The notes below the pieces were generated by a model that worked only from the letters and a program-made list of their open reading frames with translations, did no database searches and was not told the origin of the DNA. A program made the translations under genes and the position numbers. A DNA stretch of 64,000 nt, from positions 544,001 to 608,000 of the forward strand of contig CAVYNY010000010.1 of NCBI GenBank assembly GCA_963769935.1, given 5' to 3'. Below, piece by piece: positions 1,389 through 27,359 of this stretch. Source of the DNA: an uncultured delta proteobacterium (lineage in GTDB: Bacteria; Desulfobacterota; Desulfobacteria; Desulfobacterales; JAFDCJ01). Position 1 is the first letter of the stretch. Each line of letters starts with the position of its first letter.

Positions 1389-1988
1389 TTAACTTTTACC
1401 AACTTTACTGCGCAGGATTTCCAGCAATTTTTCCGGTGAATCTTTGGCCAATATCTCTCTGAACTGGCTGCGGTAGTTGTTCACCATGCTGACCCCTTCA
1501 ATGATCACGTCGTAAACCTTCCAGGAACCGCTTTTGTCCGTGAGCCGGTAAAAAAGCGGGATCTTCTTGCCGTCTGCCGTCTGCAGATAACTCTGCACCT
1601 CGGCGGTTCCCTTTTTAAGCGTGTCTTCCTTGTCAAATATAATTTTCTGATCCGAGTACGCCAGCAGCCGGTCCGCATAAACTCCCTGCAGCAGTTCCGT
1701 GAACAACTGCACAAATTCTTTTTGCTGCGCGTCGTTCATATTTTTCCACCCCTTGCCCAGGGTTCTTTTTGACAGTTCATCAAAGTCGAATATCGTATTG
1801 ATGGCATCCGTCAATTGGGTGACCTGCTGATCTTTGGGTTTGGCCTTGAAGGCCGGATCGGTCAGCGTCGCCAGCACTTTGTCGACGCCCGTCTTCACGG
1901 TTTCCATCGGCGTTGCAGCATTTCCGGCCAACGGAATTACCAATACCACTGTCAGTATCAATATAACTGCGGTAAATAGTTTGTTCAT
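1389..1988 (-). CDS. mlaC: MlaC/Ttg2D-family periplasmic lipid-binding protein
   Basis: Signal peptide MNKLFTAVIL..., FDFDELSKRTLG, WKVYDVIIEGVSMVNNYRSQF; ATG at 1988 follows a GGAGG RBS. Confidence 0.85.
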   Translation of the reverse strand: MNKLFTAVILILTVVLVIPLAGNAATPMETVKTGVDKVLATLTDPAFKAKPKDQQVTQLTDAINTIFDFDELSKRTLGKGWKNMNDAQQKEFVQLFTELLQGVYADRLLAYSDQKIIFDKEDTLKKGTAEVQSYLQTADGKKIPLFYRLTDKSGSWKVYDVIIEGVSMVNNYRSQFREILAKDSPEKLLEILRSKVGKS

Positions 1989-2028
1989 ACCTGCCTCCCT
2001 CCGGGATTCGTTGAGATCGTTGTGATCA

Positions 2029-2090
2029 TCCCAGTTAAACAAAAGACAAAAAGGTTTAACGGGATAAATTTGCATCGTTGGGATCGTTAT
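2029..2090. repeat. ~60-bp dispersed repeat, copy 1 (copy 2 at 5081-5140), with a CCCAGTTAAAC...GTTTAACGGG palindrome
   Basis: Direct visual alignment of the two copies. Confidence 0.8.
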
Positions 2091-2132
2091 GTCCGTTTAG
2101 ATCCTAAGCGCTTTTACTCCCTTCTTCATATA

Positions 2133-2230
2133 TGAAACTACACTATAAAAGTTTCTTCCTCGATCAGACTGGACGCTGGCGGCCAGAGGCGGTGCTCGTA
2201 TGAAACTTCATGAAATTCGATGTCATTTTT
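2133..2230 (+). repeat. ~95-bp dispersed intergenic repeat (TGAAACTACA...GATCAGACTGGACGCT..GGCCAGAGGCGG..TATGAAACTT), second copy at 50461-50553
   Basis: Near-identical copy at 50461-50553; shorter relatives near 2400, 50410, 50690 and 55290. Confidence 0.8.
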
Positions 2231-2508
2231 AGTCTGAAGTTAATTCCTGGCGGGAGTGGTTTTTAACCACGATTACAGATATCGGCCCGGCAGAGTGAAT
2301 CGCGATTGCCTCCAGCCCGTAAGGCTTGCGCCCCGGAGGGAAAACCGCTCCCACAGCATCTTTAAACTGTTTTCAGGTTCCCACAAAGTATCATCTTCAA
2401 TCAAACTGGTCGCCTTCGCGGCCAACGGCGCCGCTGCCACCTGAAACCAGCTTGACCCGCATATTTCCACCTTCCCCATTCCGCATTCCGAATTCAATTC
2501 TATTCTGT

Positions 2509-3015
2509 CTATTCTTCCTTGCCGGCTTCCTGCTTGCCTGTTCCGTCTTCTTTCTTGCCGGCTCCTCCGCCGACATCACCGAACGCGTACTTGCTGACCA
2601 GATCCATGATATCGGTGGGGGCGTTGGTATCGGTGATGGTATCGGCGTCGGCCAGCAGATCCCCGCCGCCGCCCGGATCGATCGAAACGTATTTATCCCC
2701 GATCAGACCTTCGGTCTTAATCGAAGCGATGGCATCGTCATAGACCTCGATGCCCTTGTTGATTCTAAACTGCACCCTGACCACCTGCTTCTCCTGATCC
2801 ATCTTAAAGCTCTCTACCCTACCGATTTCCAGCCCCAGCATGTCCACCGGGTTTCCCACCCGCAGCCCGGTCACCGTGGTAAAATCGCCGTACAACGAGT
2901 ACGTGTTATCACCGAAAAACCCCACGTTGCCCAGTTTAACGGTCATATAGCCAATACACGCCAGCCCGATCACTACAAAAAGGCCTACTACGGTCTCCTT
3001 GGAATATTTCTTCAT
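2509..3015 (-). CDS. mlaD: MlaD (single MCE domain) lipid asymmetry protein
   Basis: ETVVGLFVVIG TM, GLRVGNPV..G..IGRV, ASIKTEGLIGDKYVSIDPGG. Confidence 0.9.
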   Translation of the reverse strand: MKKYSKETVVGLFVVIGLACIGYMTVKLGNVGFFGDNTYSLYGDFTTVTGLRVGNPVDMLGLEIGRVESFKMDQEKQVVRVQFRINKGIEVYDDAIASIKTEGLIGDKYVSIDPGGGGDLLADADTITDTNAPTDIMDLVSKYAFGDVGGGAGKKEDGTGKQEAGKEE

Positions 3016-3340: not shown

Positions 3341-3979
3341 TTATTGCCCGCCGGCCGTCGGCCGCGCCAGAGCCTTGATTGCCTCTGCAATCTGCCGGCT
3401 GAGTGCCTCCACGGCGAGGCTTTGGGTCCGCACCACAGCGGCGATATCGTCGCCGGCGACAGGTTCGGAGAAATTGGCATATCTTTTCAATAGCTCGGTC
3501 CGGCCGTTTTCCCCGAAAATGGTCCACCAGGCGCGCAGCAGGACATTGCCTCCGGGCGTTCCTATGAGATCGATGACATCCACCGTTACCTGGTAATCCG
3601 TTTGGTTCGCTTGCAGCCAGGGGAAAATGGCGACGTTTTCAGTGTTCAGCAAGCAGGATAAGTTTTCAGCCAGAACCCGGGCAAAGCCGCCCCCCAAGGG
3701 ATCCCCCCACTCGGCAAATTCACTCAGCCGGATTTCATTTCCGCCGGTGCCGGTCACGATCTGAGGCCGATCCAGCTTGCCGGAAATCCTTACCGGGCCC
3801 ACACCGATGGCGACATTCTTCAGGTCGGCGATGGGTGCCGGCCGGGTTTTCGCACTATACACAGAAGTCAGCACATAAAACCGGGTGGATCTGGAATTGG
3901 CCGGTCCCAGGCATCCGAGCAGAAGAAACAGCAAAGCACCCGGCACTAAGATAATTAAATTTAACCGGTTATGTCGCAT
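3341..3979 (-). CDS. PqiC-family ABC transport auxiliary lipoprotein
   Basis: Lipobox LLGC, TRFYVL, IGVGPV..LDRPQIV, EWGDPL..VLAENLS. Confidence 0.85.
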   Translation of the reverse strand: MRHNRLNLIILVPGALLFLLLGCLGPANSRSTRFYVLTSVYSAKTRPAPIADLKNVAIGVGPVRISGKLDRPQIVTGTGGNEIRLSEFAEWGDPLGGGFARVLAENLSCLLNTENVAIFPWLQANQTDYQVTVDVIDLIGTPGGNVLLRAWWTIFGENGRTELLKRYANFSEPVAGDDIAAVVRTQSLAVEALSRQIAEAIKALARPTAGGQ

Positions 3980-5049
3980 CAGAACTCTCCTTTCTGAGGT
4001 TTGCCCCGCAGCAGGGCATCCGGATTTCGTTGGAGATAATCTGCCAGAACTCGAATCGAGCGGGCGGCCTGGGACAATTCGGCAACGGCTGTTTCAACCT
4101 GGATCCGCAGGGGTGAGCCCTCTCCAATAGCACCATTTACGCTTGCCAGGGTTTCTTGAGACTTTTGAAAGGTCTTGGCGAGATCGTCGGCAAGCGTTTT
4201 TACCTGGCCGTTGATATTTTCCGTCAGCCGGCCGACATCTTTTATCGTATTGCCCGCCGAATCTGATGTACTTTTAAAGCTGTTTGCCAGCGGCCCCACC
4301 TGGCTGTTCAGATTTGCGATCAGATTTTGGGCGTCCTTCAGGGTTTGGTTGAGATCGGCGGACATCAGTTCAATTTTTTTATCCAGATGCTGGGCAATGC
4401 TGCGGAAGTCCCCCATCGTTTGTTTGAAATAATGCAGGCTTTTGGTGAGTTCTTCGGACGTCACAATACGTTCAATGCCCTGCAGAGACTTGTTTATGCT
4501 GTTTACGATCTCGCCGATTGGAATTTCTTCCAGGGTCTTTTCAATTTTTTGCAGCGGTGTCTGGACCGTCGGGATTTCAATCACACCCGCAGGGAGTTTT
4601 ATATTTTCGCTGCTGATCATTCTAACCGGCGTGTCCGGATAAAAATCGATGTTGATCATCAGCTGACCCGTAACCATACTCTGCGTTTGCAGCTGGGCTT
4701 TTAATCCTTTTTTAATGAGATCCTGGATATATTGTTTTCGATTTTCGACAACCGCCCCGAGCGCTTGAAAATTTTCAGGATCTATTTCCATGAAAACCGG
4801 GATTTCAAACGAGTGACTGCTTTGATCGGCATAAATCATTATTTTGGTGACCTGTCCAATCTTGACGCCCCTGAACACCACCGGCGCTCCGACACTGAGG
4901 CCTTTGACCGAGCCCTGGAAATAGGCCACATATTCCGACGTTTTGACAAAAAATTTGCCGGAGCCGAAAATGATGATGGCCGCCACCCCCAGCGCCAATG
5001 CCGCCAAGACAAAGGCGCCGATAGCTTTTTTGTTTGCTTGTTTGCTCAT
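3979..5049 (-). CDS. MCE/MlaD-family protein with long helical C-terminus (PqiB-like)
   Basis: YFQGSVKGLSVGAPVVFRGVKIGQV; ends SIRVLADYLQRNPDALLRGK. Confidence 0.85.
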   Translation of the reverse strand: MSKQANKKAIGAFVLAALALGVAAIIIFGSGKFFVKTSEYVAYFQGSVKGLSVGAPVVFRGVKIGQVTKIMIYADQSSHSFEIPVFMEIDPENFQALGAVVENRKQYIQDLIKKGLKAQLQTQSMVTGQLMINIDFYPDTPVRMISSENIKLPAGVIEIPTVQTPLQKIEKTLEEIPIGEIVNSINKSLQGIERIVTSEELTKSLHYFKQTMGDFRSIAQHLDKKIELMSADLNQTLKDAQNLIANLNSQVGPLANSFKSTSDSAGNTIKDVGRLTENINGQVKTLADDLAKTFQKSQETLASVNGAIGEGSPLRIQVETAVAELSQAARSIRVLADYLQRNPDALLRGKPQKGEF

Positions 5050-5418: not shown

Positions 5419-6192
5419 TTACTTCTCTCCCCGCGTCAAAAACCGGTGCACCGTGGGGTCCTTGGAGTCCGCCAGCAGTTTCTTGGGATCGCCCTGGGCG
5501 ATCATGGTCTTTTTCTCAGGGTCCAGAAACACCGAGTTGTTCCCGATGGCAAAAATGCTGGCCAGCTCGTGGGTGACCACCACCACCGTCGCTCCCAGGC
5601 TTTCGCGCAGCTCCAGAATCAGGTCATCCAGCAGCCGGGCGCTGATCGGGTCCAGGCCGGCCGAAGGTTCATCAAAAAACAGGATTTCCGGATCCAGGGC
5701 CATGGCCCGAGCCAGGCCGGCCCGCTTCTGCATGCCGCCGCTGATCTCCGACGGGTAGTACTCCTCAAAGCCGGCCAGGCCGACCAGCGCCAGTTTCAAG
5801 GATACGAGCTTCTGAATTTGTCCTGCTTTCAAATCCGTGTATTCCTGCAGGGGCAGCGCAATGTTTTCGGCCAGGGTCATGGAACTGAACAGGGCGCCGC
5901 TCTGATACAGGACGCCGAACTGCCGCATAATCCGGTCGCGCTCGGCCGGTTCTGCATCCCAGAAGCTGACGGCGCCATAAATCACCTTGCCTTTGGCCGG
6001 CTTCCTCAACCCGATCATATGCCTTAACAGGGTACTCTTGCCGCACCCGCTGCCGCCCATGATGATGAAAATATCGCCGCGGTTGACCGTAAAGGTCAGG
6101 TTCTGTTGAACCACAAAAGAACCGTAGGCCATGGTCAGATCTTTGACCGTGATGTGTGCCTCATGATTGTTATGTGCTTCCGATGCTGTCAT
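5419..6192 (-). CDS. mlaF: MlaF-type ABC ATPase
   Basis: GGSGCGKS, YQSGALFSSMT, ISGGMQKRAGLARA, FFDEPSAGLDP, VTHEL. Confidence 0.9.
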   Translation of the reverse strand: MTASEAHNNHEAHITVKDLTMAYGSFVVQQNLTFTVNRGDIFIIMGGSGCGKSTLLRHMIGLRKPAKGKVIYGAVSFWDAEPAERDRIMRQFGVLYQSGALFSSMTLAENIALPLQEYTDLKAGQIQKLVSLKLALVGLAGFEEYYPSEISGGMQKRAGLARAMALDPEILFFDEPSAGLDPISARLLDDLILELRESLGATVVVVTHELASIFAIGNNSVFLDPEKKTMIAQGDPKKLLADSKDPTVHRFLTRGEK

Positions 6193-6418: not shown

Positions 6419-7591
6419 TTATATTCCCAACACATTACACAGCACGGTAATGATCGCCGTTGCCACGGTGATGGCGATGATCGACGTCACAACGGCCGAT
6501 GTGGTTGCGTCGCCGACGGCCGAGGCACTGCGTCCGCAGGCCATTCCTTTGAGGCACCCGGCCAGGGCCACCAACATGCCGAAAACAGCGGCCTGAAAAA
6601 TTCCGATAAAAAAATCGTTTAAATTCAGGGAGGCCTTCGTCTGATTCACATACTGGATGAGGCCGATGTCGAGCAGGCCCACGCCGACGATCAGGCCGCC
6701 GAGCACCCCCATCAGGTCCGCAAAGACGCACAACAGCGGCATCATCAGGACCAGGGCCAGCATCCGCGGCAGCACCAGAAACTCCATGGGAGACACCCCC
6801 ATGGTCTTCAAGGCATCAATCTCTTCGTTGACCTGCATCGTCCCCAGCTGAGCGGCAAAAGCCGCACCGGTGCGGCCCGCCATGACAATCCCGGCCATGA
6901 CGGCCCCCAGGACCCGCACCATGGCAATGGCCACCAGGTTGGCCACAAAGATCTGGGCCCCGAACATCATCAGCTGAACAGCGCCCACGAAGGCCAGGAT
7001 CATGCCGACCAGAAAACTGATCAAAGCCACGATCGGCAGGGCATCGACGCCGCAGTCTTGGATGAGCAGCGTCAAATCGACGCGGCGAAAGCTGGCCTGA
7101 CCCACCGGAAATTTCAAAAGTGCAACTACCGCCTCGCCGATGAACGCCAGCAGTCCCGAAGCGGCTTGCCACAGCGCAATGGCGGATGTGCCGACGCGCA
7201 CCAAAAATGGATCGCGCGTGGTTGCCTTTCGCGCCCCTTTTCTTTCCGCAACGGCCGTCGCCAGACCTATCAGTTTTTTGACGCCGACCGGCAGCCCGTC
7301 CTTTTCCACAACAATATTATTCGCTGAACAGTATTGGTAGAGATCCATTAAAAACGTCACCAGGCTGCTGTCCCAGCCGGTAAGCTGGTCGGTTTCGAAC
7401 ACCAGACGCCGGATGCCTTTAGACGGTTGGATGTGCGGGTAGGCTTCTGCGCTGGCAGGACGATGCGCATCGATTTTCCACCGGCCCTTAAGTTTGACAA
7501 GCAGGGTGTCGTTATCCTGCGGGCTGAAACTGAGGTCACCGCCTTCAGAATGCTTTTCTTTTTCTGATGACTGTTGTTTGTCTTTTGCCAT
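6419..7591 (-). CDS. mlaE: MlaE-family permease with N-terminal STAS-like domain
   Basis: AGRTGAAFAAQLGTMQVNEEIDALKTMGVSPMEFLVLPR; VGDATTSAVV; N-terminal WDSSLV. Confidence 0.9.
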   Translation of the reverse strand: MAKDKQQSSEKEKHSEGGDLSFSPQDNDTLLVKLKGRWKIDAHRPASAEAYPHIQPSKGIRRLVFETDQLTGWDSSLVTFLMDLYQYCSANNIVVEKDGLPVGVKKLIGLATAVAERKGARKATTRDPFLVRVGTSAIALWQAASGLLAFIGEAVVALLKFPVGQASFRRVDLTLLIQDCGVDALPIVALISFLVGMILAFVGAVQLMMFGAQIFVANLVAIAMVRVLGAVMAGIVMAGRTGAAFAAQLGTMQVNEEIDALKTMGVSPMEFLVLPRMLALVLMMPLLCVFADLMGVLGGLIVGVGLLDIGLIQYVNQTKASLNLNDFFIGIFQAAVFGMLVALAGCLKGMACGRSASAVGDATTSAVVTSIIAITVATAIITVLCNVLGI

Positions 7592-7632: not shown

Positions 7633-8902
7633 TCAGAACCGGTAGACAAAGTTAACGTTGAAGGCGTGAATAAAATTGGTGTCATACTCGCCCTTGAGGT
7701 CCCCAATGAGCTGACTGCGGCTCTGGTTGATCTCGGCTTCCCCCGCATAAATCAGGGTATAGGCCGCCCCGATCGAAAAATTTTTGTTCCAGTCGTACTG
7801 TACCCCGGTAGCGTAGCGATAGGCCTCGTCCAACGGCAGCAAGGGTGAGCGATCCTTGCTCCCGGATATGGGCGAGCTGTCGTAGCCGAAGCCGGCCATC
7901 AGCAGCCAGGGGTCGGCCACGCGATAGTAGACACCTACGCCGACATGAAAGGTATCCTGATAGTCCAGGTCCTTCGTGGTCGTGTTGCCATCGGCAACTG
8001 AAATTTCGGGCTCGCCGAATTTGCTCCAGTCCTGCCAGTTGACCGTGCCCACCAGCGCGAGTTTGTCGGTGAAGGCGTGATAGGCCCCGATCGACACCTG
8101 CATCGGAATCGTCGTGTCGATTTTGAATCGAGCGTCCATCAGACCGGATGCTTCCAGGGCAGCCCCCAGCACCGTGCCCTCGAGGTTTTTAAAGCGCAGA
8201 TCGTCCTTAAAATTCAGGTCGACCTGGGAGACGTAGGTAACGCCTATGCGGGTCTGCGGGCTCAATTCGAACAGCGCTCCGAGGTTAAATCCGTAGCCCA
8301 CATCAGTGGCATCGTACTTGAGGCGTCCGTCCCCCGGCTCCAGCAGAGTGTTGACGGCCACCCGCTCGCTCAACGCACCCCTGACGATGCTGGCGCCGCC
8401 GCCGACGGACAGCCACGGAGCGATCCGGTAGCCGATGGTCGGGTTGACCGCCACCGTCGTGAAGCTGGCGCTTTGAACGTAGTATTTGCCGGCCCAGTCA
8501 TTTGAGTAGTTGACTCCTAAACCGAAATAAGAGCCCACCCCAAGTCCCAGTTTTAAATCCGGGTTCAGGCTGTGCACGTAGTACAGCGGTGGGGACCGGA
8601 CTGAAATAGCCGGCATTGCCGCCCCCGTTGTCGCCGTATGTGGCGCTGTGGACATCAAACTTAGTGTCGGGATAGATGCCCAGGATGCCGCCTTCCATCT
8701 GGGAGCGGTCCAGCCGGGTCATCGCGGCCGGGTTGCCGCTGGCCGTAGAGGCATCCAGCCCCGCGGCCTGCCGGCCGGCGCCGCCTACCCCCATGTCGGG
8801 GGTCGCCTCCTCGTACAGCCAGAGCCCGCCGGCCTGGGCCGAAGAAGCCATCACAATCGCCAACAATACTGAAATGACCACGCTGAAACCATACTTCTTC
8901 AT
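7633..8902 (-). CDS. FadL/OmpP1-family outer-membrane transporter (one frameshift near 8590-8600)
   Basis: Signal peptide + GGLWLYE..GVGGAG..AGLDAST..NPAAMTRL in one frame; LGLGVGSYFGLG...VNFVYRF in the next; terminal Phe. Confidence 0.85.
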
Positions 8903-11688: not shown

Positions 11689-12393
11689 TTATTGCTTCAT
11701 GCCGTGGGCCTGGTCCAGGAACAGTTTGATTCGCTCTCCCCAGAACTTGAAGGCGTCTTCGGTGGATCCCCACTTGCTGAACCGCTCCGTGAATCCCGCG
11801 CTCTTCTCATCCTGAGCTACTGCGATCACATCGTTGGTCATAGAGTCCAGGGCCATCAACTCTGCGGTTGTCGCGCCCGAACCGCTCCAGGAGCCCGAGG
11901 CGCCTTTCTTTACGAGGCTGATGCCCAATCCGATGGGGACCACCGAGGTAATGGCGCTCAAGACCGGCCGGCTCTGTTTAAGATCCGTAATCGCAAAGCG
12001 CAGCCGCAAAACGTCGGGACCCGGTTCCGCCACTATCGGGTAGGAATCTTTAAGGACGTCGACAATCTGCTTGTCGCAAGCATCTGCCAGCTCCTTCATG
12101 TCATTGGCATCGATGCCTTTGTTTTCCGAATCATCGGCAAAATAAAAAATTACGCTGTCCAGCATGATCTTGCTGTATTTGCCGAAATCAACCCCCGGTT
12201 TCAACCAGCGCATCTTGGCGCCGCCTTCCGGTCCGGGCTGCAAATCTTTATAATAGCCGTCCAGGAAGCCCTCTGTCTGCGCAGCTGTTTCGGCATTTTT
12301 CGTTTGAGTGCCCGTCGATGCGCATGATATAACAAGGCTCACCATGGCAATTCCCATAACCGCTATCATAAGGTTTCTAACTGATGTTTTCAT
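11689..12393 (-). CDS. DUF3313-family lipoprotein
   Basis: Lipobox ISC, GFLDGYYKDL, PGPDVLRLRFAITD, ELMALDSMT. Confidence 0.75.
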   Translation of the reverse strand: MKTSVRNLMIAVMGIAMVSLVISCASTGTQTKNAETAAQTEGFLDGYYKDLQPGPEGGAKMRWLKPGVDFGKYSKIMLDSVIFYFADDSENKGIDANDMKELADACDKQIVDVLKDSYPIVAEPGPDVLRLRFAITDLKQSRPVLSAITSVVPIGLGISLVKKGASGSWSGSGATTAELMALDSMTNDVIAVAQDEKSAGFTERFSKWGSTEDAFKFWGERIKLFLDQAHGMKQ

Positions 12394-12486: not shown

Positions 12487-13197
12487 TCAACTTATCCAGC
12501 CCTGTTCCTGGAATCGTTTTTTGAGCACATCGGCAATTTCCTTCGCGGTCTGCTTGGCCCGGCCCTCAATCGTGCTTTTGCCGCTCTCTTGGCCATAGAT
12601 TTTCATTCCGCTGCTGATGATGAGCCCCGCCGGGTTGTGAGTGGCAATTAAACCGAGAACCCCCAGGTCCGCCCCCGGCGTTTCGCCGCTGGTTGAACTC
12701 GTTGTGCCGGATCCAAGTTTGCGCAATCCCTGGGCCGTCATCTGAAATCCTTCGACCGCTACTTTAAGGTCGGACGCGCCGGAACCGAATCCGATCATGA
12801 TGCGCTTAGCGGCGCTGCCCGCGTTGTATGAAATGAGATAACCCCGGATGACAATGTCGTTGATCTGCGGCGTCGTTCCTGCCATCGCCCGTGCTGCGGG
12901 CATTCCCATGGCGCGGATCTGCTCCACCAACTGCGCCGCAATTTCAACGCCCAGCTTCCGCCCGGTGGCGATCTCTTCGTCGGTTTGGGGTGTGCTGTGC
13001 TCGGAATACTGCCCCGCGAACGCGGATTCGTCCGGGACATCTTCGGGAGTAGCGGCGAAGTCGTACACCCAGATGGTATTGGGCCGCGGGAGTGGTCCGT
13101 ACACCAGTTCGCTGCGGTTGGAGACCTTAGTCGAGGCGCACCCGGCAGTCATCAGCAGGGCGACCAGACATATTACGATATGGTTGCGAAAATTCAT
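12487..13197 (-). CDS. DUF4410-family lipoprotein
   Basis: Lipobox TAGC, RPNTIWVYDF, GSAAKRIMIGFGSG; paralogous to 21148-21903. Confidence 0.75.
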   Translation of the reverse strand: MNFRNHIVICLVALLMTAGCASTKVSNRSELVYGPLPRPNTIWVYDFAATPEDVPDESAFAGQYSEHSTPQTDEEIATGRKLGVEIAAQLVEQIRAMGMPAARAMAGTTPQINDIVIRGYLISYNAGSAAKRIMIGFGSGASDLKVAVEGFQMTAQGLRKLGSGTTSSTSGETPGADLGVLGLIATHNPAGLIISSGMKIYGQESGKSTIEGRAKQTAKEIADVLKKRFQEQGWIS

Positions 13198-17515: not shown

Positions 17516-17899
17516 TCAATCATTGTGCGCTTTCGCTCCCTTAACTTGCCTGTCTTTGAACCATGCGGTGGCAAGAAGAACGGTCAATACAGCGTGGAAT
17601 GCCGCCGCCGGCCACAATAGGCTCCCGACCCACTCACCGCCGAGTCCAAGGTAAACAAGATACAGCATGACCAGCACGCTGTAAATCAGCATGCCGGAAA
17701 GCCCCCGGGCAGCTCCTCCGCCTGAGAAGCAGGCCACGCCCAGCGCAACCAGAGCGATGCCGGCCACGCGAGCGACCGCAACCGTGACGCCGGAAAATAC
17801 CGTTCCTAACAATAGCCGCCCCACAATTGAAGGCGCTGCCATCAGCGCTGCTCCCGTTAAGGCTTCGGCAACGGCTGCCAAGGATAACAGTCGGTTCAT
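17516..17899 (-). CDS. Small multi-pass membrane protein
   Basis: MNRLLSLAAVAEALTG... about 4 hydrophobic segments, LWPAAAFH. Confidence 0.6.
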   Translation of the reverse strand: MNRLLSLAAVAEALTGAALMAAPSIVGRLLLGTVFSGVTVAVARVAGIALVALGVACFSGGGAARGLSGMLIYSVLVMLYLVYLGLGGEWVGSLLWPAAAFHAVLTVLLATAWFKDRQVKGAKAHND

Positions 17900-18023: not shown

Positions 18024-20496
18024 TTACTGCATCGTCCCAAGCTTGAAGGTCAGCTTGTCGATCGTGCCGGTGAACTTGAACGGCACATCGTAGCGATACT
18101 CGAGAGCGCCAGCGGGGTGCGGGTATCCTCGCCGATGTCGAAGGTTTCGTCCTCCGGGAACGTGATCGGGGTGGAGTGTTCCATGGAATTTTTGGCCACT
18201 TCCTGGCCGTCCACAGAGAGCACGCCCGTCCCTCCCTTGCCCAGGCCCGGTTCAGCAGGCTTGTAGTCGAAGACGATGGTGTGCTTGCCGGCGCCCAACT
18301 CAGGCCCTTCCCACGCCGTGCGCTTGAGGTCGAGCAGGTTGTAGAGGAACACGACCTTGCCCCGGCCGAATCCAAACTCGCCCTTGCTCAGGAACAGGCC
18401 ATAGCCGCCGAAGCGCCCGCCCTGGGTGACGATCATGCCTTCCGCGCCGCCTGCGGGGATCGTCGACCTCGGCGGTGATGGTGTAGGCCTTGTTCAGGAT
18501 GTCCGGTGCAGTGCTGCCCGGCACACCGGTCAGTCCTCCCGAATAGGTGAACTCCGTTCGTCCCGCCGTGAGGCTCGGCTTCGGCGAGTTCCAGCGCGCG
18601 AGCGTCGTGTTGTCGAGCGGCAGCACGTTATACTTCGCCGCCTCGAGGTAGAAGAGGTTCTGCATCTGCTTGAGCTTGTCCGGCATCTTGGCGGCCAGAT
18701 CGTTGTTCTCGGTGGGATCCTCCATGACGTTGTAGAGCTCCCACTTGTACCCGCTGATCACATCGGGCGGCGGCTTGGTGCTCAGCTCCCACGGGAGCGT
18801 CACCGGCGTCGTGGCCGCCACCCACCCGTCGTGATAGATGGCGCGGTTGCCGAGCATCTCGAAATATTGCGTCGTGTGCCGGGTCGGGGCGTTGGCATTG
18901 GCCTTGTCCCAGGTGTACACCATGCTCATGCCTTCGATGGGACGCTGCTTGATGCCGTTGATGGTGTCGGGGGCCGGGATGCCGGTCGCTTCGAGGATGG
19001 TCGGCACGATGTCGATGACGTGGTGGAACTGGCGGCGGATGCCGCCAGGGTCCTTGATGTGGCCGGGCCAGGACATGGCCATGCCCTGGGCCGTCCCGCC
19101 GAAATGCGACGGCACCTGCTTCATCCACTTAAAGGGCGTGTCGAACGCCCACGCCCAGGGCGCCGCAAAGTGCGGGTAGGTCCGAGCGGACCCCCAGAAC
19201 TCGTACCAGAGAAACTGGTCCTTGACCGGCACTTCGACGCCATTGAAGGTGGTGAACTCGTTCGGCGTGCCGTTGAGCATGCCTTCCGCGCTCGCGCCGT
19301 TGTCGCCGCTGATGTAGATGATCAACGTATTGTTGAACTCGCCGAGGTCTTCGACGGCCTGGATGACGCGGCCGATCTCATGATCGGTGTAGGCCTGGTA
19401 CGCCCCATAGACTTCCGCCTGCTTGATGAAGAGCTTCTTTTGCTCCCAGTCGAGCGAGTCCCACCGGGGCAGCTTCGCGCCGCCGTAAATATCCTGTCCG
19501 TCCGGCCACGGGGTCAGTTGCGCGTTCTCGGGCATGATGCCGAGCCGCTTCTGGTTGGCGAAGATGGTCTCCCGCAATTTTTCCCAGCCGTCGTCGAAGA
19601 GATGCATGGCGCTGATCTTGTCGATCCATTCCTTCGTCGGATGATGCGGGGCGTGCGTGCCGCCCGGCACGTAATAGACAAAGAACGGTTTGTCGGGCGC
19701 GAGCTCCTTGAGCTGCTTCATGTACTGGATCGCCTCGTCGGCCATGGCCGTGGTCAGGTTCCAGCCGGGGTTGCCCTGGAAGGGGTAGATGGCCGTGGTA
19801 TTGCGGAACAGGTTCGGCTCCCACTGGCTGGCGTCGCCGCCGACGAAGCCGTAGAAATAATCGAAGCCCATGCCGGTCGGCCATTGATTGAACGGCCCGG
19901 CCTGGCTGTTCTCGAAGAACGGCGTGTTGTGATCCTTGCCGAACCACGAGGTCCCGTAGCCGTTGTCCTTCAGGATCGTGCCAATGGTGCCCTTCTCGAT
20001 CGGGATGATCGAGTCGTAGCCCGGGAACCCCGTCGCGATTTCGCCCACCACCCCGAAGCCCGCCGAGTGATGGTTGCGCCCGGTGATGATCGCCGCCCGC
20101 GTGGGCGAGCAGAGCGACGTGGAGTGGAAGTTTGTATAGCGCAGCCCGCTTTGCGCGATGCGATCCAGGGCCGGGGTCGGGATGACGCCGCCGAAGGTGC
20201 CCGGCGCGCCGAAGCCGTCGTCGTCGGTCATGATGAGCAGCACGTTGGGCGCGCCCTTGGGCGGCACGACGCGCGGCGGCCACCAGGCTTTCGACTCCGA
20301 GGCCTTGTCTTTGATCACCCCGCCGAATTTCGGATCGGGCGGCAGGAAGTTGTTTGCCGTTGATGGTGGTGGTGGCGCTGGGCGAACCCAACTCACCGGT
20401 AACTTGCTGCGCCATGGCCGGCAAGGCGGTCATATACACAATAGCAATCAGCATAACGGCGATTGCCGCCGCTAATGATCGATTTTCTTTTTTCAT
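18024..20496 (-). CDS. Secreted Cys-type arylsulfatase B (frameshifts near 20345, 18465 and 18100)
   Basis: PNVLLIMTDD, LCSPTRAAIITGR, SGDNG, WELYN; rebuilt end YDVPFKFTGTIDKLTFKLGTMQ*. Confidence 0.9.
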
Positions 20497-20584: not shown

Positions 20585-20990
20585 TTACTCCAGCCCTTCC
20601 AGGCTCCGCTGAACCATCTGCATGTACTGCTCTTGCTGCTGCGGGGTTAGCACATGGAAAATCTGGTTGCGCAGCTCCAGCCGGTTCACCATGCGCTTGG
20701 CTGCGATTGCGGAAATCTGCCGGGACACCTCCTGCGCTTTGGACGAATTGAAAGGGGCGCCGGTGACGACCTCGCGGATGGCCCCCCGGTGCTGCAGGGC
20801 CTCATTCACCGCCGTCGGCAGGTTGCTTTGTTTTTGGGCAAACTGATTGAAGAACCAGCGAACCTGATCAATCTGGTTCTGGCTGAGGTTCAGTTCGAAG
20901 ATCAGGGCGCCGATGTGAATCCTGCGCCATCGCGCCCGCCGGGGCAAGGATGAAAATGCCGATCAATGCCAATTTAAGGTAGCGCTTCAT
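20585..20990 (-). CDS. Spy/CpxP-family periplasmic chaperone (frameshift near 20930)
   Basis: Signal MKRYLKLALIGIF; LNLSQNQ and VLTPQQQ (LTxxQ) motifs. Confidence 0.7.
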
Positions 20991-21147: not shown

Positions 21148-21903
21148 CTAAAGAAACGACTTCTTCTTCACTGCATCCGGCGGAATCCAGCCCTGGTCCA
21201 CGAAGAAGTTTCCCAGATCCACCGCGATCTTGTCCGCCAGGCGTTTGGCGTCCGACTCCACCGTGGCGGAGGTCATTTCGGTGGCCCCGGACAAAGTGCC
21301 GCTCACCAGGGTCGAGGCCAGCAAATGGCCGGCGATGGCCCCGACCCCCATCATCTCGCCCATGCCCGGCTTGTCGCCGCTCTTGGCAGTGCCTTGCAGG
21401 GTATCTACCTCCTTCTTACCCTCGGGCGTTATCTCGTACACCTGCACATTGGCCTGGACGCTGGTCCGGCCGGCGCCCAGCCCGATGGCGACGCGCTCGG
21501 TGCGGTTGCCCTCGTCGATGGACAGCAGCTGGCCCTTAACCATGAGATCTTTTTCATTGCCGTGCGGATAGCCAAAGCCCCGCTCGGCCCAAAGCCCGTA
21601 GCTGCGGATCTTTTTGACCAGCTCCTCCGCCAGGGCGTCGGCCACCTTATGGCCCACCTTGATCTCTTCGGCGGTGCGCGACATGCCTTTGTGCTCCTCG
21701 TATTTCTGCATAAGGTCCGCGCTGAGCCCGGTATCCAGCTCGACCTCCTCGGGCGAGACGGCGAAGTCATAGACCAGGATAAGGCTGGGTCTCGCCAGCT
21801 GAGCGACAGCCATGTTCTCTTGCTGTACGTTTGTCGGCGCGCAGCCTGCGGCAAGGGCCAGCACCAATAAAATTAAGAGTCCGAATTTGATTCTGCTTTT
21901 CAT
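21148..21903 (-). CDS. DUF4410-family lipoprotein
   Basis: Lipobox AAGC, RPSLILVYDF, DEGNRTERVAIGLGAG. Confidence 0.75.
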   Translation of the reverse strand: MKSRIKFGLLILLVLALAAGCAPTNVQQENMAVAQLARPSLILVYDFAVSPEEVELDTGLSADLMQKYEEHKGMSRTAEEIKVGHKVADALAEELVKKIRSYGLWAERGFGYPHGNEKDLMVKGQLLSIDEGNRTERVAIGLGAGRTSVQANVQVYEITPEGKKEVDTLQGTAKSGDKPGMGEMMGVGAIAGHLLASTLVSGTLSGATEMTSATVESDAKRLADKIAVDLGNFFVDQGWIPPDAVKKKSFL

Positions 21904-21948: not shown

Positions 21949-22554
21949 TTAGAATAACGTGTCCTTGATCAAAGCCGGCAGCACCGGTATCATTTGGAAA
22001 CGGATGTCCCAATGCTGCCCGAAATCGTCCGGGTGCACCACCATGTAATCCGCCTCGACGGTGAACTTCACCGGCAGGCGGCCGATCCTGACCATCTTGC
22101 CGATGCCCAGGCCGACGGGCACGGTAAAGCGATTATCCTGGTCGGCCTTCCAGTCGATGAGGATATTCGGCGCCATGCCGATCTGCCAGTTGTCCCCGAA
22201 AAAATACTGAATGAAATACTGGATATTGGCCTGGCTGGTGGCTTCGCGGTCCCCGTCGCCGGCAAACGACCACCACTGCTGGGCCAGGGAGCCGAAAACC
22301 CACTCCTTCCCCATGTAAAGCCCCACCGCGGCCGGGCCCGCCTGGTACTGGCCCTGCCCCAAAGCGTCGTTGGTGGCCGTGGGAAAAATGAAAGTCGGCC
22401 CCACCCCCCATATGAAGCCGCTGGACAGCTTGGCCGGCGAAAGGAGCGACACCAGCGCGATGTCGCCGAGGCCGGACTTGTCGTCCCAGCCCTCTCCCGG
22501 CTCAAAATCAGGGGAGCTGAATAGGTAGGGGAAGACCGGGCGGGTGATGAGGTT
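21949..22554 (-). CDS. 3' exon of a putative outer-membrane beta-barrel protein interrupted by a group II intron
   Basis: NLITRPVFP..SGLGDI..WGVGPTFIFPTAT..LGQGQYQAGP..TVPVGLGIGK; joins in frame to the 5' exon. Confidence 0.8.
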   Translation of the reverse strand, partial: NLITRPVFPYLFSSPDFEPGEGWDDKSGLGDIALVSLLSPAKLSSGFIWGVGPTFIFPTATNDALGQGQYQAGPAAVGLYMGKEWVFGSLAQQWWSFAGDGDREATSQANIQYFIQYFFGDNWQIGMAPNILIDWKADQDNRFTVPVGLGIGKMVRIGRLPVKFTVEADYMVVHPDDFGQHWDIRFQMIPVLPALIKDTLF

Positions 22555-24799
22555 TCCGGGTAAAGGCACTGCTTGCGCAGCGCCCTCCCCACAGACCCGT
22601 ACTTGAAGATTTCCCTCATACGGTTCCTCGGTTCCAATCCTTTTTACCGAATTGGAAACCAAACAGGCGACACCCCGATTGGCGCATAACTTTGCTGCCC
22701 TTTAGGCTTATCAGATATTGTGGACTATCCTGGGTATAGGCAATGGAAAGCTGGCTCGGATTTTCTCGAACTTTTCCCAGCTGATGCCGCCCTTGTGGCT
22801 GCGGCGGCTTAGCCAGAACCGCCAAGCCTTCTCGGCGTACTCAAATACAACCTCAAGGGCCTTGTAGTTGCCACGTACTCCAAAGTACAGGTAGTAGCCC
22901 CGCAACTTCGTACATAGCATCTGATGTTGCTCCTTGATCGGCTCATGCCGATTTTCACGACACCACTGCCACAGCCGCTTCATAAAACGCGACAGCCGCT
23001 TGCCTATTGTTTTCTTCTTTATCACCCAGTAGCCTCGAAGCGATTTTGACCAGTAAAAGGTAAAGCCCAGAAAATCAAACGTACCTTTTCCTTTGCCTTT
23101 TTCCTTTAACGGCGGCCTTCTGAAGTCGATGACCGCGGTCTTGTCCGCATGAAGGGCCAAGCCATACTCATTGAACCGTTTTGGCAGTACATTCATTATC
23201 CGCTTTGCGTCTGACTCGAACTCACAACCGATGATAAAGTCATCCGCATAGCGAATGATGAAACATTTGCCCTTCATTCGAGGCAATGCTTGCTTTACAA
23301 ACCATTCGTCCAGCACATAGTGCAGGAATATGTTCGAAAGCACGGTGAAATTACTCCGCCTTGAGGCACTCCTTTGCCAGGATAGGAAAGAATCCCTTCT
23401 TCCATCACCCCGGCGTTCAACCATTTGCCGATCAGACGCAGCATCCCACCGTCATTGACCCTTCGCTTAATAAACTTGCGAAGCAGATTATGATCAATGT
23501 TGTCAAATAGTCCTTCGATATCTGCGCTCACTATCCAGCCTATGTTCAGCTTCCGGCAATCCTCACGTATCTGGTGGATTGCCTTGTGCTGGCTGTGGCC
23601 CTTGCGAAAGGCGTGGGAAAAATCATAGAAGTTCACGTCATAGATGACGTTTAAGATGGTAGACGCTGCCCTTTGGACGATTTTGTCCTCCAGAGCCGGT
23701 ATACCGATCGGCCTATTTTTCCCCCTTCCTTGTCGATCCAGATCCGTCTTACCGGTGTGGCAACGTACTGACCTCTGCGCAGCCGTTGATATAGATTATA
23801 GAGGTTTTCATCAAGATCCTTGGCGTACTCCTTGGCCGTGATCTTGTCCACACCGGCTGACTTACTCTTACGAACCTGACGAAAGGATTTCTTCAACAGG
23901 TACAAATCAATCCTGTGGACCACAGAGGTGAATACCAGCTCCGGCTCACTCTCTGCCAGCATTCTGATCCGTAAAAGCGATGATTCGCCCTCAAACAGCG
24001 GCGGGCCTCCTCCTGACGGATCTGCCACACCCTGACCGGAATCGCCAGCAGCCTTTGCCGCAATTCCCTGGGTTTCCGTGGATATGGTTGGTGACCTCTG
24101 AGTATCTCCCATAGTTCCTTCCAGAGAAACGTTATACCCGGCTTCTCCTTCCCTGCAGTGGGTCGCTTGGGCCTCACTTCCCCACCTTACCGGTCCAGCA
24201 TTTACGTTCCTGACCATCGGTACTATGATCCGCTAAGACTTCCAGAAAGTCCATCTCGGGTTTGTTCGCTTTTCGCTATCCTCCCCCGATACCTTGTATT
24301 GCTCCTTTGCTTTCGTCTCGCTGGTCAGGTTAGAGCGCCCCTTCACAGCGCCTGGATTCTCGCCTCGTTGCGCTGGCCGGCACCCTCCAACCGGTTATTG
24401 TACACAAGGAAAACATCTGGATCTCCCGAGTTCCCAAGTTACCCCTATGAGCACATGCCCTGGTCTCAGACCCCGGTGGTGTCCCGAATGCTTGCCATAG
24501 CGCATGTGGGACTGCTGCCTTCCGGCCAGATGAACGCCGTCGGCTTTCTCTCATACAAGCGGAACTTATCCCAAGGTCCACAACTATACATTTTTCGGGG
24601 CTCAATACACAGCCTGCATCCTTGATCCATCCGGCTTCGGACTCCCGTCTCCGGGTTGGCCCGCGGATTCACTACTGACCTGGTGGCTAACCTTTAGTCA
24701 GGTGGGACTTGAACCTAGGTGATCCTCACCCACTGGGTAACAATATCGAATTTCACCTCCTTGGAAGGTTCCCAACGATTCGGGCTTAGCTGGGCACGA
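22555..24799 (-). mobile_element. Group II intron (~2245 nt), sense orientation within the host gene
   Basis: Domain V GAACCGTATGAGGGAAATCTTCAAGTACGGGTC at 22594-22626, domain VI hairpin after it, GTGCC near the 5' end and an internal RT ORF; removal restores ...LTKEW|NLITRP... Confidence 0.92.
22711..24112 (-). CDS. ltrA: Intron-encoded reverse transcriptase/maturase, no endonuclease domain (frameshifts near 23715 and 23345)
   Basis: KSAGVD, PVRRIWI, SHAFRKG, ADIEGLFDNIDH, GVPQGGVISP, RYADDF, FDFLGF, domain X (LRGYYLYF). Confidence 0.9.
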
Positions 24800-25065
24800 C
24801 CACTCCTTTGTCAGGTGAATCGGCAGAACAGGCTGGAAGTTCATCACATCCTGCTCGCGGGTCTTGTCCGTCGCTTCCCCCTGCAAGTAGTAGCGGTTGA
24901 ACTGAAAGTTCAGTGCCCAGATGTCCGCTACCGGGTTGTTGAGCTGCTTGGCCACATCGGCCATGGACTTGTGATCCGGCGCGGCGGGTTCGCCCGTCTG
25001 GGCACCTGCGCCGCCGGGCAGGCAAAAAACAATACACAGAAAACTAAAAGCCATCGAATTTTCAT
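24800..25065 (-). CDS. 5' exon of the intron-split outer-membrane protein
   Basis: Signal peptide, AKQLNNPVADI, NFQPVLPIHLTKEW; start is either 25054 or 25065 (the latter has the RBS but needs a T-run indel). Confidence 0.75.
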
Positions 25066-25272
25066 AATTTATTCCCTTTCATGGTCTATCGGAGCTAAAA
25101 CCGCATTGCCTGTTTTAAACTCGGCTGGCCTTATTCCTCCTGACAGTCGGGTATGAGGAGCAGCTGAGGGTCGAGCGGCTGAACAGCCGCCGATCGCGCT
25201 GTCCGCCCCAACCTGTGTGCTGTCCATAAAGGCCGCTCTCCGACAAGCTTAACAGTAGATCGGAACGCAAAA

Positions 25273-26812
25273 TCACGGTTGAAGTTCGATTTCTCCCGGC
25301 CGCCAGGTCTTGTCGAACCACGGCTCAAGCGGGCCGTACAGGCGCAGGATCATGAACCAGCCTTTGCCGGGAATCGTCTGCACCCAGTTGTTTTCCTTTC
25401 CTGCCGGAGCTTTGGGGCCGAAATAGACATCGACCGAGCCGTCCTTGTTGACGAGCAGATCCTTGTTCTGGCTGCTGACGCTGGGGAACTGCTGATCGGT
25501 TTGGACCATCGAGCGCGTCTGGTTGTCATAGACGATGACCGACCAGAAGTCTTTGACCGGAATGTTTGGCGGCAGGTGCAGCTTATAGTTGTTTCCGCCC
25601 TCAAACGGGTTGCCGTCCGCGTCCTGTGCGCGACCAGGGATACTGCGAACCTTTGCCGACCATTTTCTCCGCCATGGCCGGCGTCACGCCGGTGGCGAAA
25701 TAGTAAAAGAAATGGCCCCGTCCAGATTGGCCACGCCGGTGCAGCTCTCGAACTTGTAGCCGCCGAAGAAGGGCAGACGCCAAGGGCTGTCTGGATAGAA
25801 GAAGGCGTCTTTGTCACGAATCCTGAAGGCGATCGCTCGCGCGGTCACGCTGCCAATCTTCGCGGCGTCCGTCAGGATCTTCTTCATCCGATCATCGGGA
25901 TTGAAGGGCTTGCCCTTCTCGATGCCGATCGAGGCAAACAGACCCAGCGTGGTGGGGTCGCTTCCCTCGCTTGGCTCTTCCTGAATGGCTTCGTTCAGGA
26001 GACTCCAGAAGGTGTAGTCGCTGGGCGGGACAAAGGTCGAGGGAATGCCCGGAGGCATTGACGAACTTCATCTCGGGAGGATTGGCCGCATCGGAGAGCT
26101 GATAGATCTTCAGATGTTTCTTGACCGCCTCGACGCCGGGCTTGGTCGAGCCATCGACGAGAAAGGAGCGAAAGGGCATCCAGTTGCCATAGGTGCTCGG
26201 CCGCACGACGAAATAGCCCTCGGGCACTTCGCCTTTGTAGCCCGGAGGCAGGATCAGATACTTGCCGCCTTTGCCATGGTCTGCACCTGTAATACCGATG
26301 TCGGCAACCCATTGATACCAGAAGTCATCGATGAGACCCAGAACCATGGGTGGAACCTCTACGACCAGCGGCCCCTTTTTCGTGTCAAGCCAAATGAAGC
26401 TATATATGGTGTTGTCGTTCGCCGTCAGTTCCACGGTTTTCGAATCCACAAGGTCTTCCCAGATCACATCTGTCTGGTTTACCGGTCCGAACTCGCGGAG
26501 CGTGGCGCGCATGCCGACCTGGTTGACTATCGGGATGGCAAGCAGGTAGGCCTGCAGCGCTCGCGAGGCATCCAGGTTGTCGTAGACTTTCTGCGTGGTC
26601 GCGTCATCGGGATAGCCGTAGTTCAGGTTCAGGGTGCCGATGGATGTTTCGACCTTGTCAGGTACCGCTATGCCCTGCGGTAAGGAAGTTGAATACTTGT
26701 ACTCCGGTGCCGCCGGCGCACCTGAGAGCTGCGGTACGGTGCCGGCACATGAGGCGACCGTGATCAAGGCAGCCAATGCTGTGCAGATCGATAGTTGGTT
26801 GCGTGTTGTCAT
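25273..26812 (-). CDS. DUF1254/DUF1214-domain lipoprotein (several frameshifts, 25640-26050)
   Basis: LTANDNTIY, GPLVVEVP, GKGGKYLILPPGY, NKDGSVDVYFGP, NWVQTIPGKGWFMILRLYGP. Confidence 0.85.
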
Positions 26813-27027
26813 TCGTCTTTCCTCCTTTTACTGTAAGCGGTTCACTGAAATCAACTAATCCATCCGGCTTTTGGTAACAAAATCCTCCGAAGCCGTCCGC
26901 ATTGAACCGATCTGCCGAACCCGCCGCTGCTCCGACCTCGGTATTGATTTCCCACACCTAATCCGGACAAGCCGGAATTGAAAATTGAAGATTTGTGCAC
27001 AAAATGCACGAATTTAACTTCTAAGAT

Positions 27028-27359
27028 CTATTCGCGGGTTTGGATTCTGGCCTGTTCTATGGTTTCCACGCCGGTCGAGTGCGCGATTTGTCGAAACGGA
27101 TCTCCGGGGGTTCGGCGGCCATCTCGACCACCAGAAGAACTTTGCGGTATTTCTCGGATCGCAGATGACACTGCACGTCCTCGTCACTCATCCAGAGTTC
27201 CTCGAGCAGGATAGCGCGCCCATCCTCCACACCCCCATAAAGCCAGCGGCCGATACAACCCGGCTCGAATTGGGTCTGCTCGGTCGTCGAACCCAGAATT
27301 TCCAAGGCCTCGCTCTGCTTTTCAAGTGGTATGAGCATCCTGATGGTGGATCGTACCAT
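27028..27359 (-). CDS. Antibiotic-biosynthesis-monooxygenase (ABM) fold protein (frameshift near 27090)
   Basis: EPGCIG..LLEELW..HLRSEKYRKVL; the alternative frame gives the end IAHSTGVETIEQARIQTRE*. Confidence 0.7.

Follow-up and report, generated by a model that had tools for sequence, protein, structure and literature searches.

Among described systems, those closest in regulatory logic to the locus considered here are FhlA/NtrC-family sigma-54 regulons and, with them, the OrpR-controlled orp operons of Desulfovibrio vulgaris. The latter, as described in PMC8359166, resemble the present case in employing a bacterial enhancer-binding protein (bEBP) with a sensory N-terminus, an AAA+ domain and a helix-turn-helix (HTH), as well as two binding sites, a -24/-12 promoter, and a small regulon found near the activator gene. 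The locus itself is an array, about 26 kb in length, of 20 co-oriented minus-strand host genes that runs from a gene for an ABM/YgiN-fold protein (27359) to mlaC (1389). It is found in a 64,000-nucleotide stretch of DNA, here ‘the window’, i.e., positions 544001 to 608000 of contig C10 (CAVYNY010000010.1) from assembly GCA_963769935.1 (G000; 8.0 Mb, 41 contigs, 96.7% complete, 5.4% contaminated) of an uncultured delta proteobacterium. The best named homologues come from metagenome-assembled genomes of Desulfobacterales, and the organism is accordingly viewed as related to that order. Coordinates are those of the window unless a contig or locus is named, and the array's parts, the enhancer and promoter sites, and the activator gene are on the minus strand. 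Genomes used for comparison, congeners G008, G010, G012 and G013 included, carry G numbers, while fetched loci carry L numbers.

FhlA is the best NCBIfam match of the array's predicted activator, but at 387.5 bits versus a cut-off of 830 (NF011958), which falls short of orthology. Relative to OrpR, which has an Fe-S PAS sensor, the array's activator instead has a GAF-GAF-PAS sensor, and relative to both OrpR and FhlA the array displays a TG(C/T)CG-N6-CG(G/A)CA enhancer, an ABM-fold first gene, and envelope cargo. The D. vulgaris sigma-54 regulome study (PMC4641369) has none of the terms TGCCG, TGTCG, monooxygenase or sulfatase in its main text.

As to cargo, the array's sulfatases are of the same CxPxR formylglycine sulfatase subfamily as Pseudomonas aeruginosa AtsA (1HDH), likewise stand beside transport genes, and differ in being about 810-850 amino acids (aa) in length, with a signal peptide and a C-terminal extension. 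The Pseudomonas ats locus includes an ABC importer, AtsRBC, and is under sulfur-starvation LysR/CysB control, whereas the array has no AtsRBC-type importer or maturase, possesses only MlaE/MlaF-like ABC parts, and is under sigma-54/bEBP control. Versus canonical MlaFEDCB-A, the array is without MlaA, and a separate mlaE-F-D-C-A operon is found in G000 at C10:669-673k. Versus PqiABC, the array has a PqiC-like lipoprotein but no PqiA, and its single-MCE, 356-aa protein reaches only 123 of the 525 bits set for PqiB. The array's MlaC, MlaD, MlaE, MlaF, PqiB and PqiC matches all indeed fall under equivalog cut-offs, and these parts, unlike in the Mla and Pqi systems, are embedded with sulfatases behind a sigma-54 promoter. 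VP1361-VP1364 of Vibrio parahaemolyticus, described in PMC10734457 as a horizontally acquired MlaEFD-like system with a suggested alternate lipid substrate, is similar in that the array too has an extended MlaE, an MlaF, and an MCE protein with a helical C-domain. The same source has the gene for VPA0735 (DUF1254/1214) closing another candidate mobile cluster of V. parahaemolyticus.

The array's FadL protein is over its Pfam cut-off, and FadL channels take up hydrophobic molecules. Channels of COG4313 (PF13557) likewise are implicated in taking up hydrophobic molecules (PMC4493636, in part), but the array's own barrel is intron-interrupted, lacks a Pfam match of its own, and is tied to PF13557 by a lead only, that being its nearest Pfam-bearing Atlas cluster (11% of members, score 0.97). 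Rhizobial plasmid clusters consisting of a ‘transporter’ barrel, DUF2092, DUF1254 and MscS appear to draw upon the same pool of uncharacterised secreted proteins, as does the DUF3300-DUF2950 pair (PMC4653623, in part), though the rhizobial clusters, in contrast to the array, have AraC, Crp/Fnr or two-component neighbours. The BiofilmReg operon (PMC5192318) is unrelated, a stress study of R. baltica (PMC2754498) has sulfatases both induced and repressed but no such cluster, and the mentions of DUF1254/1214 under NnrR (PMC6710368) or LexA (PMC11840546), and of SMa1683 in a mutant of tolC (PMC2912261), each concern one gene. The main text of PMC12316311 contains neither ‘sulfatase’ nor ‘monooxygenase’, and the open-access literature, supplements apart, yielded no description of the array or of its activator-enhancer-ABM head. 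Each component, and the sigma-54 logic as well, is known; the arrangement is new.

The conserved core of this locus is, very probably, a regulatory head, that is, activator, enhancer, sigma-54 promoter and ABM gene. A sigma-54 promoter upstream of the array had been proposed in an earlier note, made from the DNA letters without database searches, and a -24/-12 box, TGGCATAGATTTCGCT, does occupy 27517..27532, upstream of the ABM gene and 115 bp past the enhancer start. That note did not describe the tandem enhancer (27666-27632), which consists of a proximal palindrome, TGCCGAAATATCGGCA (27632..27647; TGCCGA-N4-TCGGCA, conserved in locus L164 and others), and, 19 bp upstream, a distal imperfect copy or upstream activating sequence, TGCCGAAATAAGAGCA (27651..27666). 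The two sites thus stand at -115 and -134, within the 80-150 bp upstream of the promoter, and are separated from the TGGCATAGATTTCGCT box by an AT-rich stretch. In relatives the box (GG-N10-GC) 5' of the first gene is conserved, and the paired sites stand near -130..-135 and -112..-116.

TGCCGA-N4-TCGGCA has just 3 exact matches in the 8 Mb of G000, and enhancer plus box at 98-99 bp spacing is found at window 27647, window 44006, and C10:622316, i.e., all 3 matches to the strict enhancer-plus-box pattern are on C10, with 0 for reversed-pattern controls. Across 41 genomes this strict pattern is seen in 5, those being G000 and four congeners of 22, with none among 18 other genomes and none for reversed controls, and in each of those four (G008, G010, G012, G013) one match stands directly behind an activator orthologue of 76-90% identity. 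In 5 other genomes a looser version of the enhancer pattern matched about as often as its controls. The second copy in the window (43877..44006) is directly behind the activator's stop codon and precedes asmA (40507-43707), a gene whose family the earlier note had named among those moving hydrophobic molecules across the envelope, and which has the same promoter but is positioned outside of the 26 kb in question. The third copy precedes a gene for an 829-aa secreted protein without a Pfam match and with a Ser/Gly-rich tail, its operon (L006:11416-14316, C10:619-622k) continuing with an open reading frame that carries a DUF3302-sulfatase fragment, and then a Na+/H+ antiporter. Homologues of the 829-aa protein adjoin DUF4410 in 6 of 79 DUF4410 loci.

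The predicted cognate activator (44026..46704) is a GAF-GAF-PAS-AAA+-HTH bEBP (PF00158 and PF02954) that has the GAYTGA variant of the GAFTGA-type AAA+ loop, along with an HTH whose recognition helix reads LKRTTLQSK. It is encoded 17 kb from the array's promoter, being separated from the ABM promoter by genes at 29173-40300, namely those for two hybrid histidine kinases, along with STAS/SpoIIE genes, which occupy the interval from asmA to the array. Small ligands are the usual partners of GAF sensors, and the sensor part of such activators ranges from one GAF to several GAF/PAS domains among 24 proteins scanned. G000 has 61 AAA+ matches, and among its 9 HTH matches an RTTL helix is found only in the window's activator (TTLQ) and in an activator on contig C35 (TTLY) that has TGTCG-type sites and an ABM gene of its own. 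That C35 module (L009:6774-16141) is followed by a truncated sulfatase gene and by Lnb_N, MipA, PLD and MlaA genes.

Linkage of activator to ABM extends well beyond this genome. Sixty-two ABM loci were fetched from GTDB with the ABM gene as marker; an activator match is present in 54 of these and in 51 is on the same strand, ending no more than 1.3 kb upstream. The motif scan covered 58 of the 62, the four with partial ABM matches having been left out, with a TGGC..GC box seen in 33/58 versus 3.8% of 1,160 mononucleotide shuffles, and with box plus, 75-150 bp ahead of it, an enhancer-like site seen in 31/58 versus 0.4% of the same shuffles. A distant ABM clade (6 loci: L041, L043-L047) displays a different tandem palindrome, CCTCAATATATTGAGG-like, about equally far 5' of its sigma-54 box. 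As the ABM gene accompanies the activator regardless of cargo, it probably is to be viewed as part of the regulatory head, with a regulatory role, rather than as cargo. LsrG and PspA may serve as analogies.

The activator's helix also appears to track its enhancer. Among 55 distinct helix rows, 34 have a scorable site (Q rows 21 of 26 scorable, Y/L/I rows 10 of 13). Glutamine following (T/S)TL pairs with C at enhancer base 3 in 42 of 42 half-sites, while Y, L or I pairs with T in 16 of 20. In a tree of 31 rows that leaves the helix out, there are at least 6 state changes, 3 of them forced by starred branches. The covariation is suggestive but not significant. Such a one-residue, helix-to-base rule nevertheless would be an inexpensive prediction to test when regulons are to be assigned to the approximately 60 sigma-54 activators of such a genome.

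The array proper matches the gene list that the earlier note had given, as seen with Pfam and NCBIfam, and inspection of N-termini for signal peptides, lipoboxes and membrane helices agrees with that note's description of nearly all products as secreted, lipidated or membrane proteins. What it overlooked were a group II intron in the barrel gene and a number of frameshifts. Following the ABM gene (PF03992; 27028..27359; one base missing near 27091; close homologues 109-112 aa) are genes for a VPA0735-like DUF1254/DUF1214 lipoprotein (25273..26812; about 3 frameshifts), a paralogue of which was compared with 2P3Y/3VB9, and for a putative outer-membrane barrel consisting of exon 1 (24800..25065; one frameshift) and exon 2 (21949..22554; automatically named ‘neuromedin U’ or ‘transporter’, with the PF13557-like lead). 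There then come an intact DUF4410 lipoprotein, ‘a’ (21148..21903; TolB-N/PqiC/CsgG/PelC-type likeness on a low-confidence model), a Spy/CpxP-like periplasmic protein (20585..20990; frameshift near 20915), sulfatase 1 (18024..20496; secreted, Cys-type with CSPTR, AtsA-like; about 3 frameshifts, at 20344, ~18455 and ~18100), a 127-aa membrane protein without a Pfam match (17516..17899), and sulfatase 2 (14815..17366; also secreted, Cys-type and AtsA-like; two extra bases, at ~16372 and ~15380). Next are a 132-aa lipoprotein without a Pfam match (14256..14654; matched in 17 of 79 DUF4410 loci), a periplasmic protein with a C-terminal SHOCT (13293..14150; N-domain with a LolA/RseB-like lead), DUF4410 lipoprotein ‘b’ (12487..13197), a DUF3313 lipoprotein (11689..12393), an 836-aa, MscK-like channel of the MscS family, under equivalog cut-off (8982..11492), and a FadL/TodX-family outer-membrane channel (7633..8902; one extra base near 8588). 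The array ends with an MlaE-family permease that has an N-terminal extension of about 170 aa (6419..7591), an MlaF-like ABC ATPase (5419..6192), the MCE protein (3979..5049; PqiB-like, helical C-terminal part), the PqiC-like lipoprotein (PF03886; 3341..3979), MlaD (2509..3015) and MlaC (1389..1988; true start probably 1988). One promoter may transcribe all 26 kb. A sigma-70-like promoter scan gave 14 versus 8.3±2.9 and 11 versus 7.1±3.3 in shuffled sequence for the two strands, which is near background.

The barrel's intron (22555..24799; 2,245 bp) is a real insertion. RF02005 is matched at 24711-24461 (105 bits) and RF00029 at 22628-22554 (40.6 bits), with a frameshifted reverse transcriptase (RT)/maturase frame at ~24112-22711 that consists of TIGR04416 fragments. 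The intact barrel gene of G013 can be aligned as far as 24800 and then again from 22554, leaving no gap on the G013 side, and because this empty site aligns gap-free the insertion can be placed at exactly 24799-22555. The resulting ends are UCGUG...CCGGA rather than the canonical 5'GUGYG...AY3' (PMC4424553, in part), and the intron may or may not splice out. Related copies with the same ends are found in G000 at C38:121905-122447, C18:76637-76740 and C11:108668-108787, with the C18 copy also sharing the exon end AGTGG. CCGCTT at intron nucleotide 238 can pair with exon GAGTGG and thus is a candidate exon-binding site 1 (EBS1).

Cargo behind this head is variable. The earlier note had proposed checking for co-occurrence of the array's families in other genomes, and in relatives the families do co-occur, though not in a fixed composition. 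Contig C23 of G013 holds most of them together over ~30 kb in shuffled order, that is, ABM, barrel, sulfatase, Ysc84-like, DUF3313, DUF2092, MscS, FadL and MlaE, and then DUF2092, MlaF, MCE, PqiC, DUF4410, DUF3313, FadL, PqiAAB-C-like and MlaEFDCA. L164, a metagenome contig, has promoter, ABM, DUF4410, sulfatase, lipoprotein, SHOCT, DUF4410, MscS and FadL, i.e., the window's order minus two blocks, while L165, also a metagenome contig, keeps the window's order with missing blocks and runs on to MlaE-MlaF. Common to both is DUF4410-sulfatase-lipoprotein-SHOCT-DUF4410-(MscS)-FadL-(MlaE-MlaF). As the parts travel together while their order and composition vary, the 26-kb composition is one strain's version. 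Cargo, that is, is gained, lost and reordered in blocks, making this a variable array and not a fixed machine.

Counts bear on which parts recur. Among 79 DUF4410 loci there is a sulfatase match in 29 (18 of the 28 loci of at least 5 kb), ABM in 14, and the barrel in 13. ‘DUF3302’ matches inside sulfatase genes were left out of the counts, being an artefact of a query that includes part of a sulfatase C-terminus. For 46 ABM loci with at least 3 kb downstream, envelope cargo is seen in 33, a window family in 21, cytoplasmic cargo in 18, and a sulfatase in 13. The cytoplasmic cargo, with redox enzymes among it, consists of a CoA-disulfide-reductase-like enzyme (14/46), a phosphofructokinase (PFK)-like protein (8/46), and a glycyl-radical enzyme (7/46). 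Also found are SulP (5/46), rhodanese (2/46), and a DszB-like protein (7/46; E 2e-10 to 2DE2; without a Pfam or NCBIfam match), examples of the last being L109:5514-6695 and L084:10431-11624. The glycyl-radical enzyme (GGCIET loop; L101:14995-17424, and also in L084, L092, L103, L110 and L112) is accompanied by an activase, the PFK-like protein, and the CoA-disulfide-reductase-like enzyme; interpreting the PFK-like and glycyl-radical proteins as sulfo-EMP or C-S lyase cargo is not supported by family cut-offs. In 250 genomes drawn evenly from the phylum, using single-protein queries and with kin not independent, there are 19 with ABM, 20 with the long sulfatase, 15 with the barrel, and 3 with DUF4410, none of those 3 having a window-type ABM. 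Sulfatase and barrel occur together in 8 of the 250 (1.2 expected), within 15 kb in 6; ABM and sulfatase in 5 (1.5 expected); and ABM and barrel in 5 (1.1 expected). The barrel and AtsA-type sulfatase are thus the tightest pair. The barrel is found as well in 137 plasmid records, mostly rhizobial, while the plasmid collection holds no ABM homologue at E 1e-6.

Our tentative preference, at a probability just short of even, is that this accessory envelope array, behind its conserved sigma-54 promoter, imports lipophilic sulfate esters and hydrolyses them in the periplasm. Both sulfatases have CSPTR, i.e., the CxPxR formylglycine signature, and their translations display TDD, GKDH, HAPH and GDNG motifs which we take to be the metal and catalytic sites of AtsA. 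The nearest solved structures are arylsulfatases, 1HDH included (E 3e-49). That arylsulfatase likeness, combined with channels for hydrophobic molecules, carriers, and the SulP, DszB-like, rhodanese and CoA-disulfide-reductase genes of sister operons, is what leads to the uptake-and-desulfation reading. With regard to carriers, a structural model of DUF4410 gives Z of 5-7 to an LPHT-ring chain, HpaA, TraT, TolB, PelC, the curli complex and PqiC. PDB sequence searches with DUF4410 and DUF3313 yielded nothing meaningful, and comparison of the two profiles gave a probability of 2.5%. The N-domain of the SHOCT protein points to the LolA/RseB group and has no BLAST similarity to DUF2092, which is common in such arrays and is LolA-like (PMC4520260, in part); the two may be interchangeable carriers.

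By this sulfate-ester reading, a small ligand would bind the activator's GAF domain or domains, and the activator would then bind the tandem TGCCGA palindromes ~115 and 134 bp upstream and open the sigma-54 promoter. FadL and the COG4313-like barrel would pass amphipathic molecules through the outer membrane, with PqiC-fold lipoproteins (PqiC and the two DUF4410), the LolA-like carrier, MlaC, and MCE/MlaEF carrying them over the periplasm. The two secreted AtsA-type sulfatases would cleave the sulfate ester to yield a carbon skeleton and sulfate, while MscS and Spy may buffer the envelope against stress from detergent-like substrates. A broader version is more speculative still and, as we judge it, quite improbable in full. 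In it the head would be a widespread sigma-54 module of sediment anaerobes, carried by Desulfobacterota and also by Acidobacteriota and Aminicenantes metagenome-assembled genomes (MAGs), with the GAF-type activator and ABM as a dedicated pair (ABM binding the activator or turning over an organosulfur inducer), the enhancer retuned by one helix residue, and the promoter serving as a ‘landing pad’ for swappable organosulfur cargo, i.e., sulfatase-barrel arrays, DszB-like protein, SulP, CoA-disulfide reductase and the glycyl-radical enzyme.

A number of observations weigh against these readings. The best anaerobic sulfatase-maturating enzyme (anSME) score in this 96.7%-complete genome is 55.5 bits versus a cut-off of 349, and none of its 6 matches to the formylglycine-generating enzyme (FGE)-sulfatase domain has the canonical FGE core motif. 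Sulfate-ester hydrolysis by the array's sulfatases is a prediction from sequence. Single-sequence modelling of the barrel gave pLDDT 32, and the DUF4410 model (pLDDT 54) has a best Z of 7.2 and Foldseek E>0.1. The glycyl-radical enzyme is nearest to HypD, at 495 bits versus a cut-off of 1100, rather than to a known C-S lyase. Of the 20 phylum-sample genomes with a long sulfatase, 15 are without a match to the window's ABM, and in 3 rhizobial plasmid regions the barrel, with DUF1254, DUF2092 or MscS neighbours, adjoins AraC, Crp or adenylate-cyclase genes. As regards the head, the ABM-headed cluster of G013 has no match to the enhancer-plus-box pattern, and the helix-base rule comes down to 3 of 3 independent pairs in agreement (sign test p=0.25). 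The promoters of asmA and of the 829-aa protein and Na+/H+ antiporter operon fit envelope upkeep better.

Envelope upkeep is the substance of the main alternative, one that we consider somewhat unlikely, namely, that this is a general envelope-stress regulon in which the activator responds to envelope, osmotic, pH or redox disturbance by switching on genes for lipid trafficking (Mla/Pqi, AsmA, FadL), a chaperone (Spy), and channels and transport (MscS, K+ channels, Na+/H+ antiporter), with the sulfatases either remodelling the cell's own surface or being passengers. The placement of the same promoter 5' of asmA and of the antiporter operon speaks for it, as do a second promoter copy in G008 that precedes barrel-pqiA-pqiA-pqiB-like genes, the recurrence as cargo of MscS, Spy, AI-2E, small K+ channels, HlyD/RND and an MGH1-like hydrolase, and the failure of the anSME and FGE searches to find a sulfatase maturase. 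Sulfatase genes, however, rank with the most frequent cargo (13/46) and are physically linked to the barrel; SulP, DszB-like and disulfide-reductase genes occur in sister operons; small-ligand binding is what is usual for GAF sensors; and the array has a patchy distribution (DUF3313 in 3 of 22 congeners), unlike core stress systems. Sulfate-ester uptake has somewhat more support than stress remodelling, with both being predictions. Quite unlikely is that the locus is an accretion zone rather than one unit, in which independent blocks (DUF1254-barrel; DUF4410-sulfatase; MscS-FadL; MlaEF-MCE-PqiC; duplicated mlaDC) have gathered behind a promoter that drives only the first few genes. The shuffled order in G013 and the missing blocks of L164 and L165 are consistent with accretion, as are intergenic gaps of 200-500 bp at several places and an 84-nucleotide repeat 5' of both the MCE gene and mlaC (5071-5154, 2019-2102; 23 blastn matches genome-wide). 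So too is the 90-93% DNA identity of mlaD and mlaC (1389-3015; 90% and 93%, respectively) to copies in the separate mla operon (C10:670154-671491; mlaD at C10:671k), an identity that suggests recent duplication or exchange. Nonetheless, all 20 genes are co-oriented with no excess of terminators (22 versus 16.6 and 18 versus 16.8 shuffled, near background), L164 and L165 keep the DUF4410-to-FadL order, and G013 holds the same families together over 30 kb.

A different question is whether the array is intact in this strain. Because of ~14 one-base frameshifts in 8 reading frames (ABM 1, DUF1254/1214 ~3, barrel 5' part 1, RT 2, Spy 1, sulfatase 1 ~3, sulfatase 2 two, FadL 1), the assembled sequence leaves 7 of the 20 host genes, and the RT as well, without an open frame, the other 13 host genes being open. 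These probably are assembly errors. That the array's 5' half instead really is decaying, and thus is a relic here, seems unlikely and would be compatible with either functional reading. About 13 of the 14 lesions lie within 14.8-27.4 kb, and in a dicodon Viterbi scan of 8 contigs (347 13-kb bins) the bin of the array's 5' half has 6 frameshift calls, the highest of all (mean 0.44), which favours a local cause and tells against a working array; the intron in the barrel and its shifted RT also fit decay. The lesions located, though, are indels of one base, and neither nonsense substitutions nor large deletions were seen, while genuine decay with this number of indels would be expected to leave nonsense changes and a surplus of missense ones as well. 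Sulfatase 2 is set apart from its L164 sister (94.7% identical) by the two extra bases, its lineage having 35 synonymous and 9 nonsynonymous changes and 0 stops in 849 codons versus 38 and 12 for the sister, i.e., with no nonsynonymous excess; stops inside homologue alignments are confined to shifted segments, and the promoter is intact. Genes elsewhere in G000 also are shifted, with shifts in orthologues of 4 of 47 G012 genes by tblastn (6 shifts in 56 kb) or, by a looser blastn count, 18 shifts in 52 kb. Some of these cluster in a patch on C18; from their N-termini, the shifted genes presumably include those for ClpB, RNase Y and FabD. The gnd, zwf and tal frames (59439-63458) appear truncated or shifted as well, a further sign of assembly indels.

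Parts and regulatory logic are conventional here and the exact 26-kb composition is strain-specific, but DUF4410, DUF3313, DUF1254/1214, DUF2092 and the ‘neuromedin U’ barrel are tied to a single type of promoter and a single activator family, such that one reporter and a ligand screen could supply a physiological trigger for all of these unannotated envelope families. Were that trigger an organic sulfate ester, then this would point to how relatives of sediment sulfate reducers tap sulfated organic matter.

Of the array's surroundings, a channel gene of SBP_bac_3 plus Ion_trans_2 type, i.e., GluR0-like (3-1040, plus strand), converges on the array's 3' end. Upstream of the array is a gene (27926-28714) without a Pfam match that is frameshifted near 28664 relative to L164, where its homologue also precedes the same promoter. 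Additional intergenic repeats are found at 26951-27030 (19 blastn matches genome-wide) and at 28781-29000, the latter with 36-nucleotide inverted arms and 109 blastn matches genome-wide.

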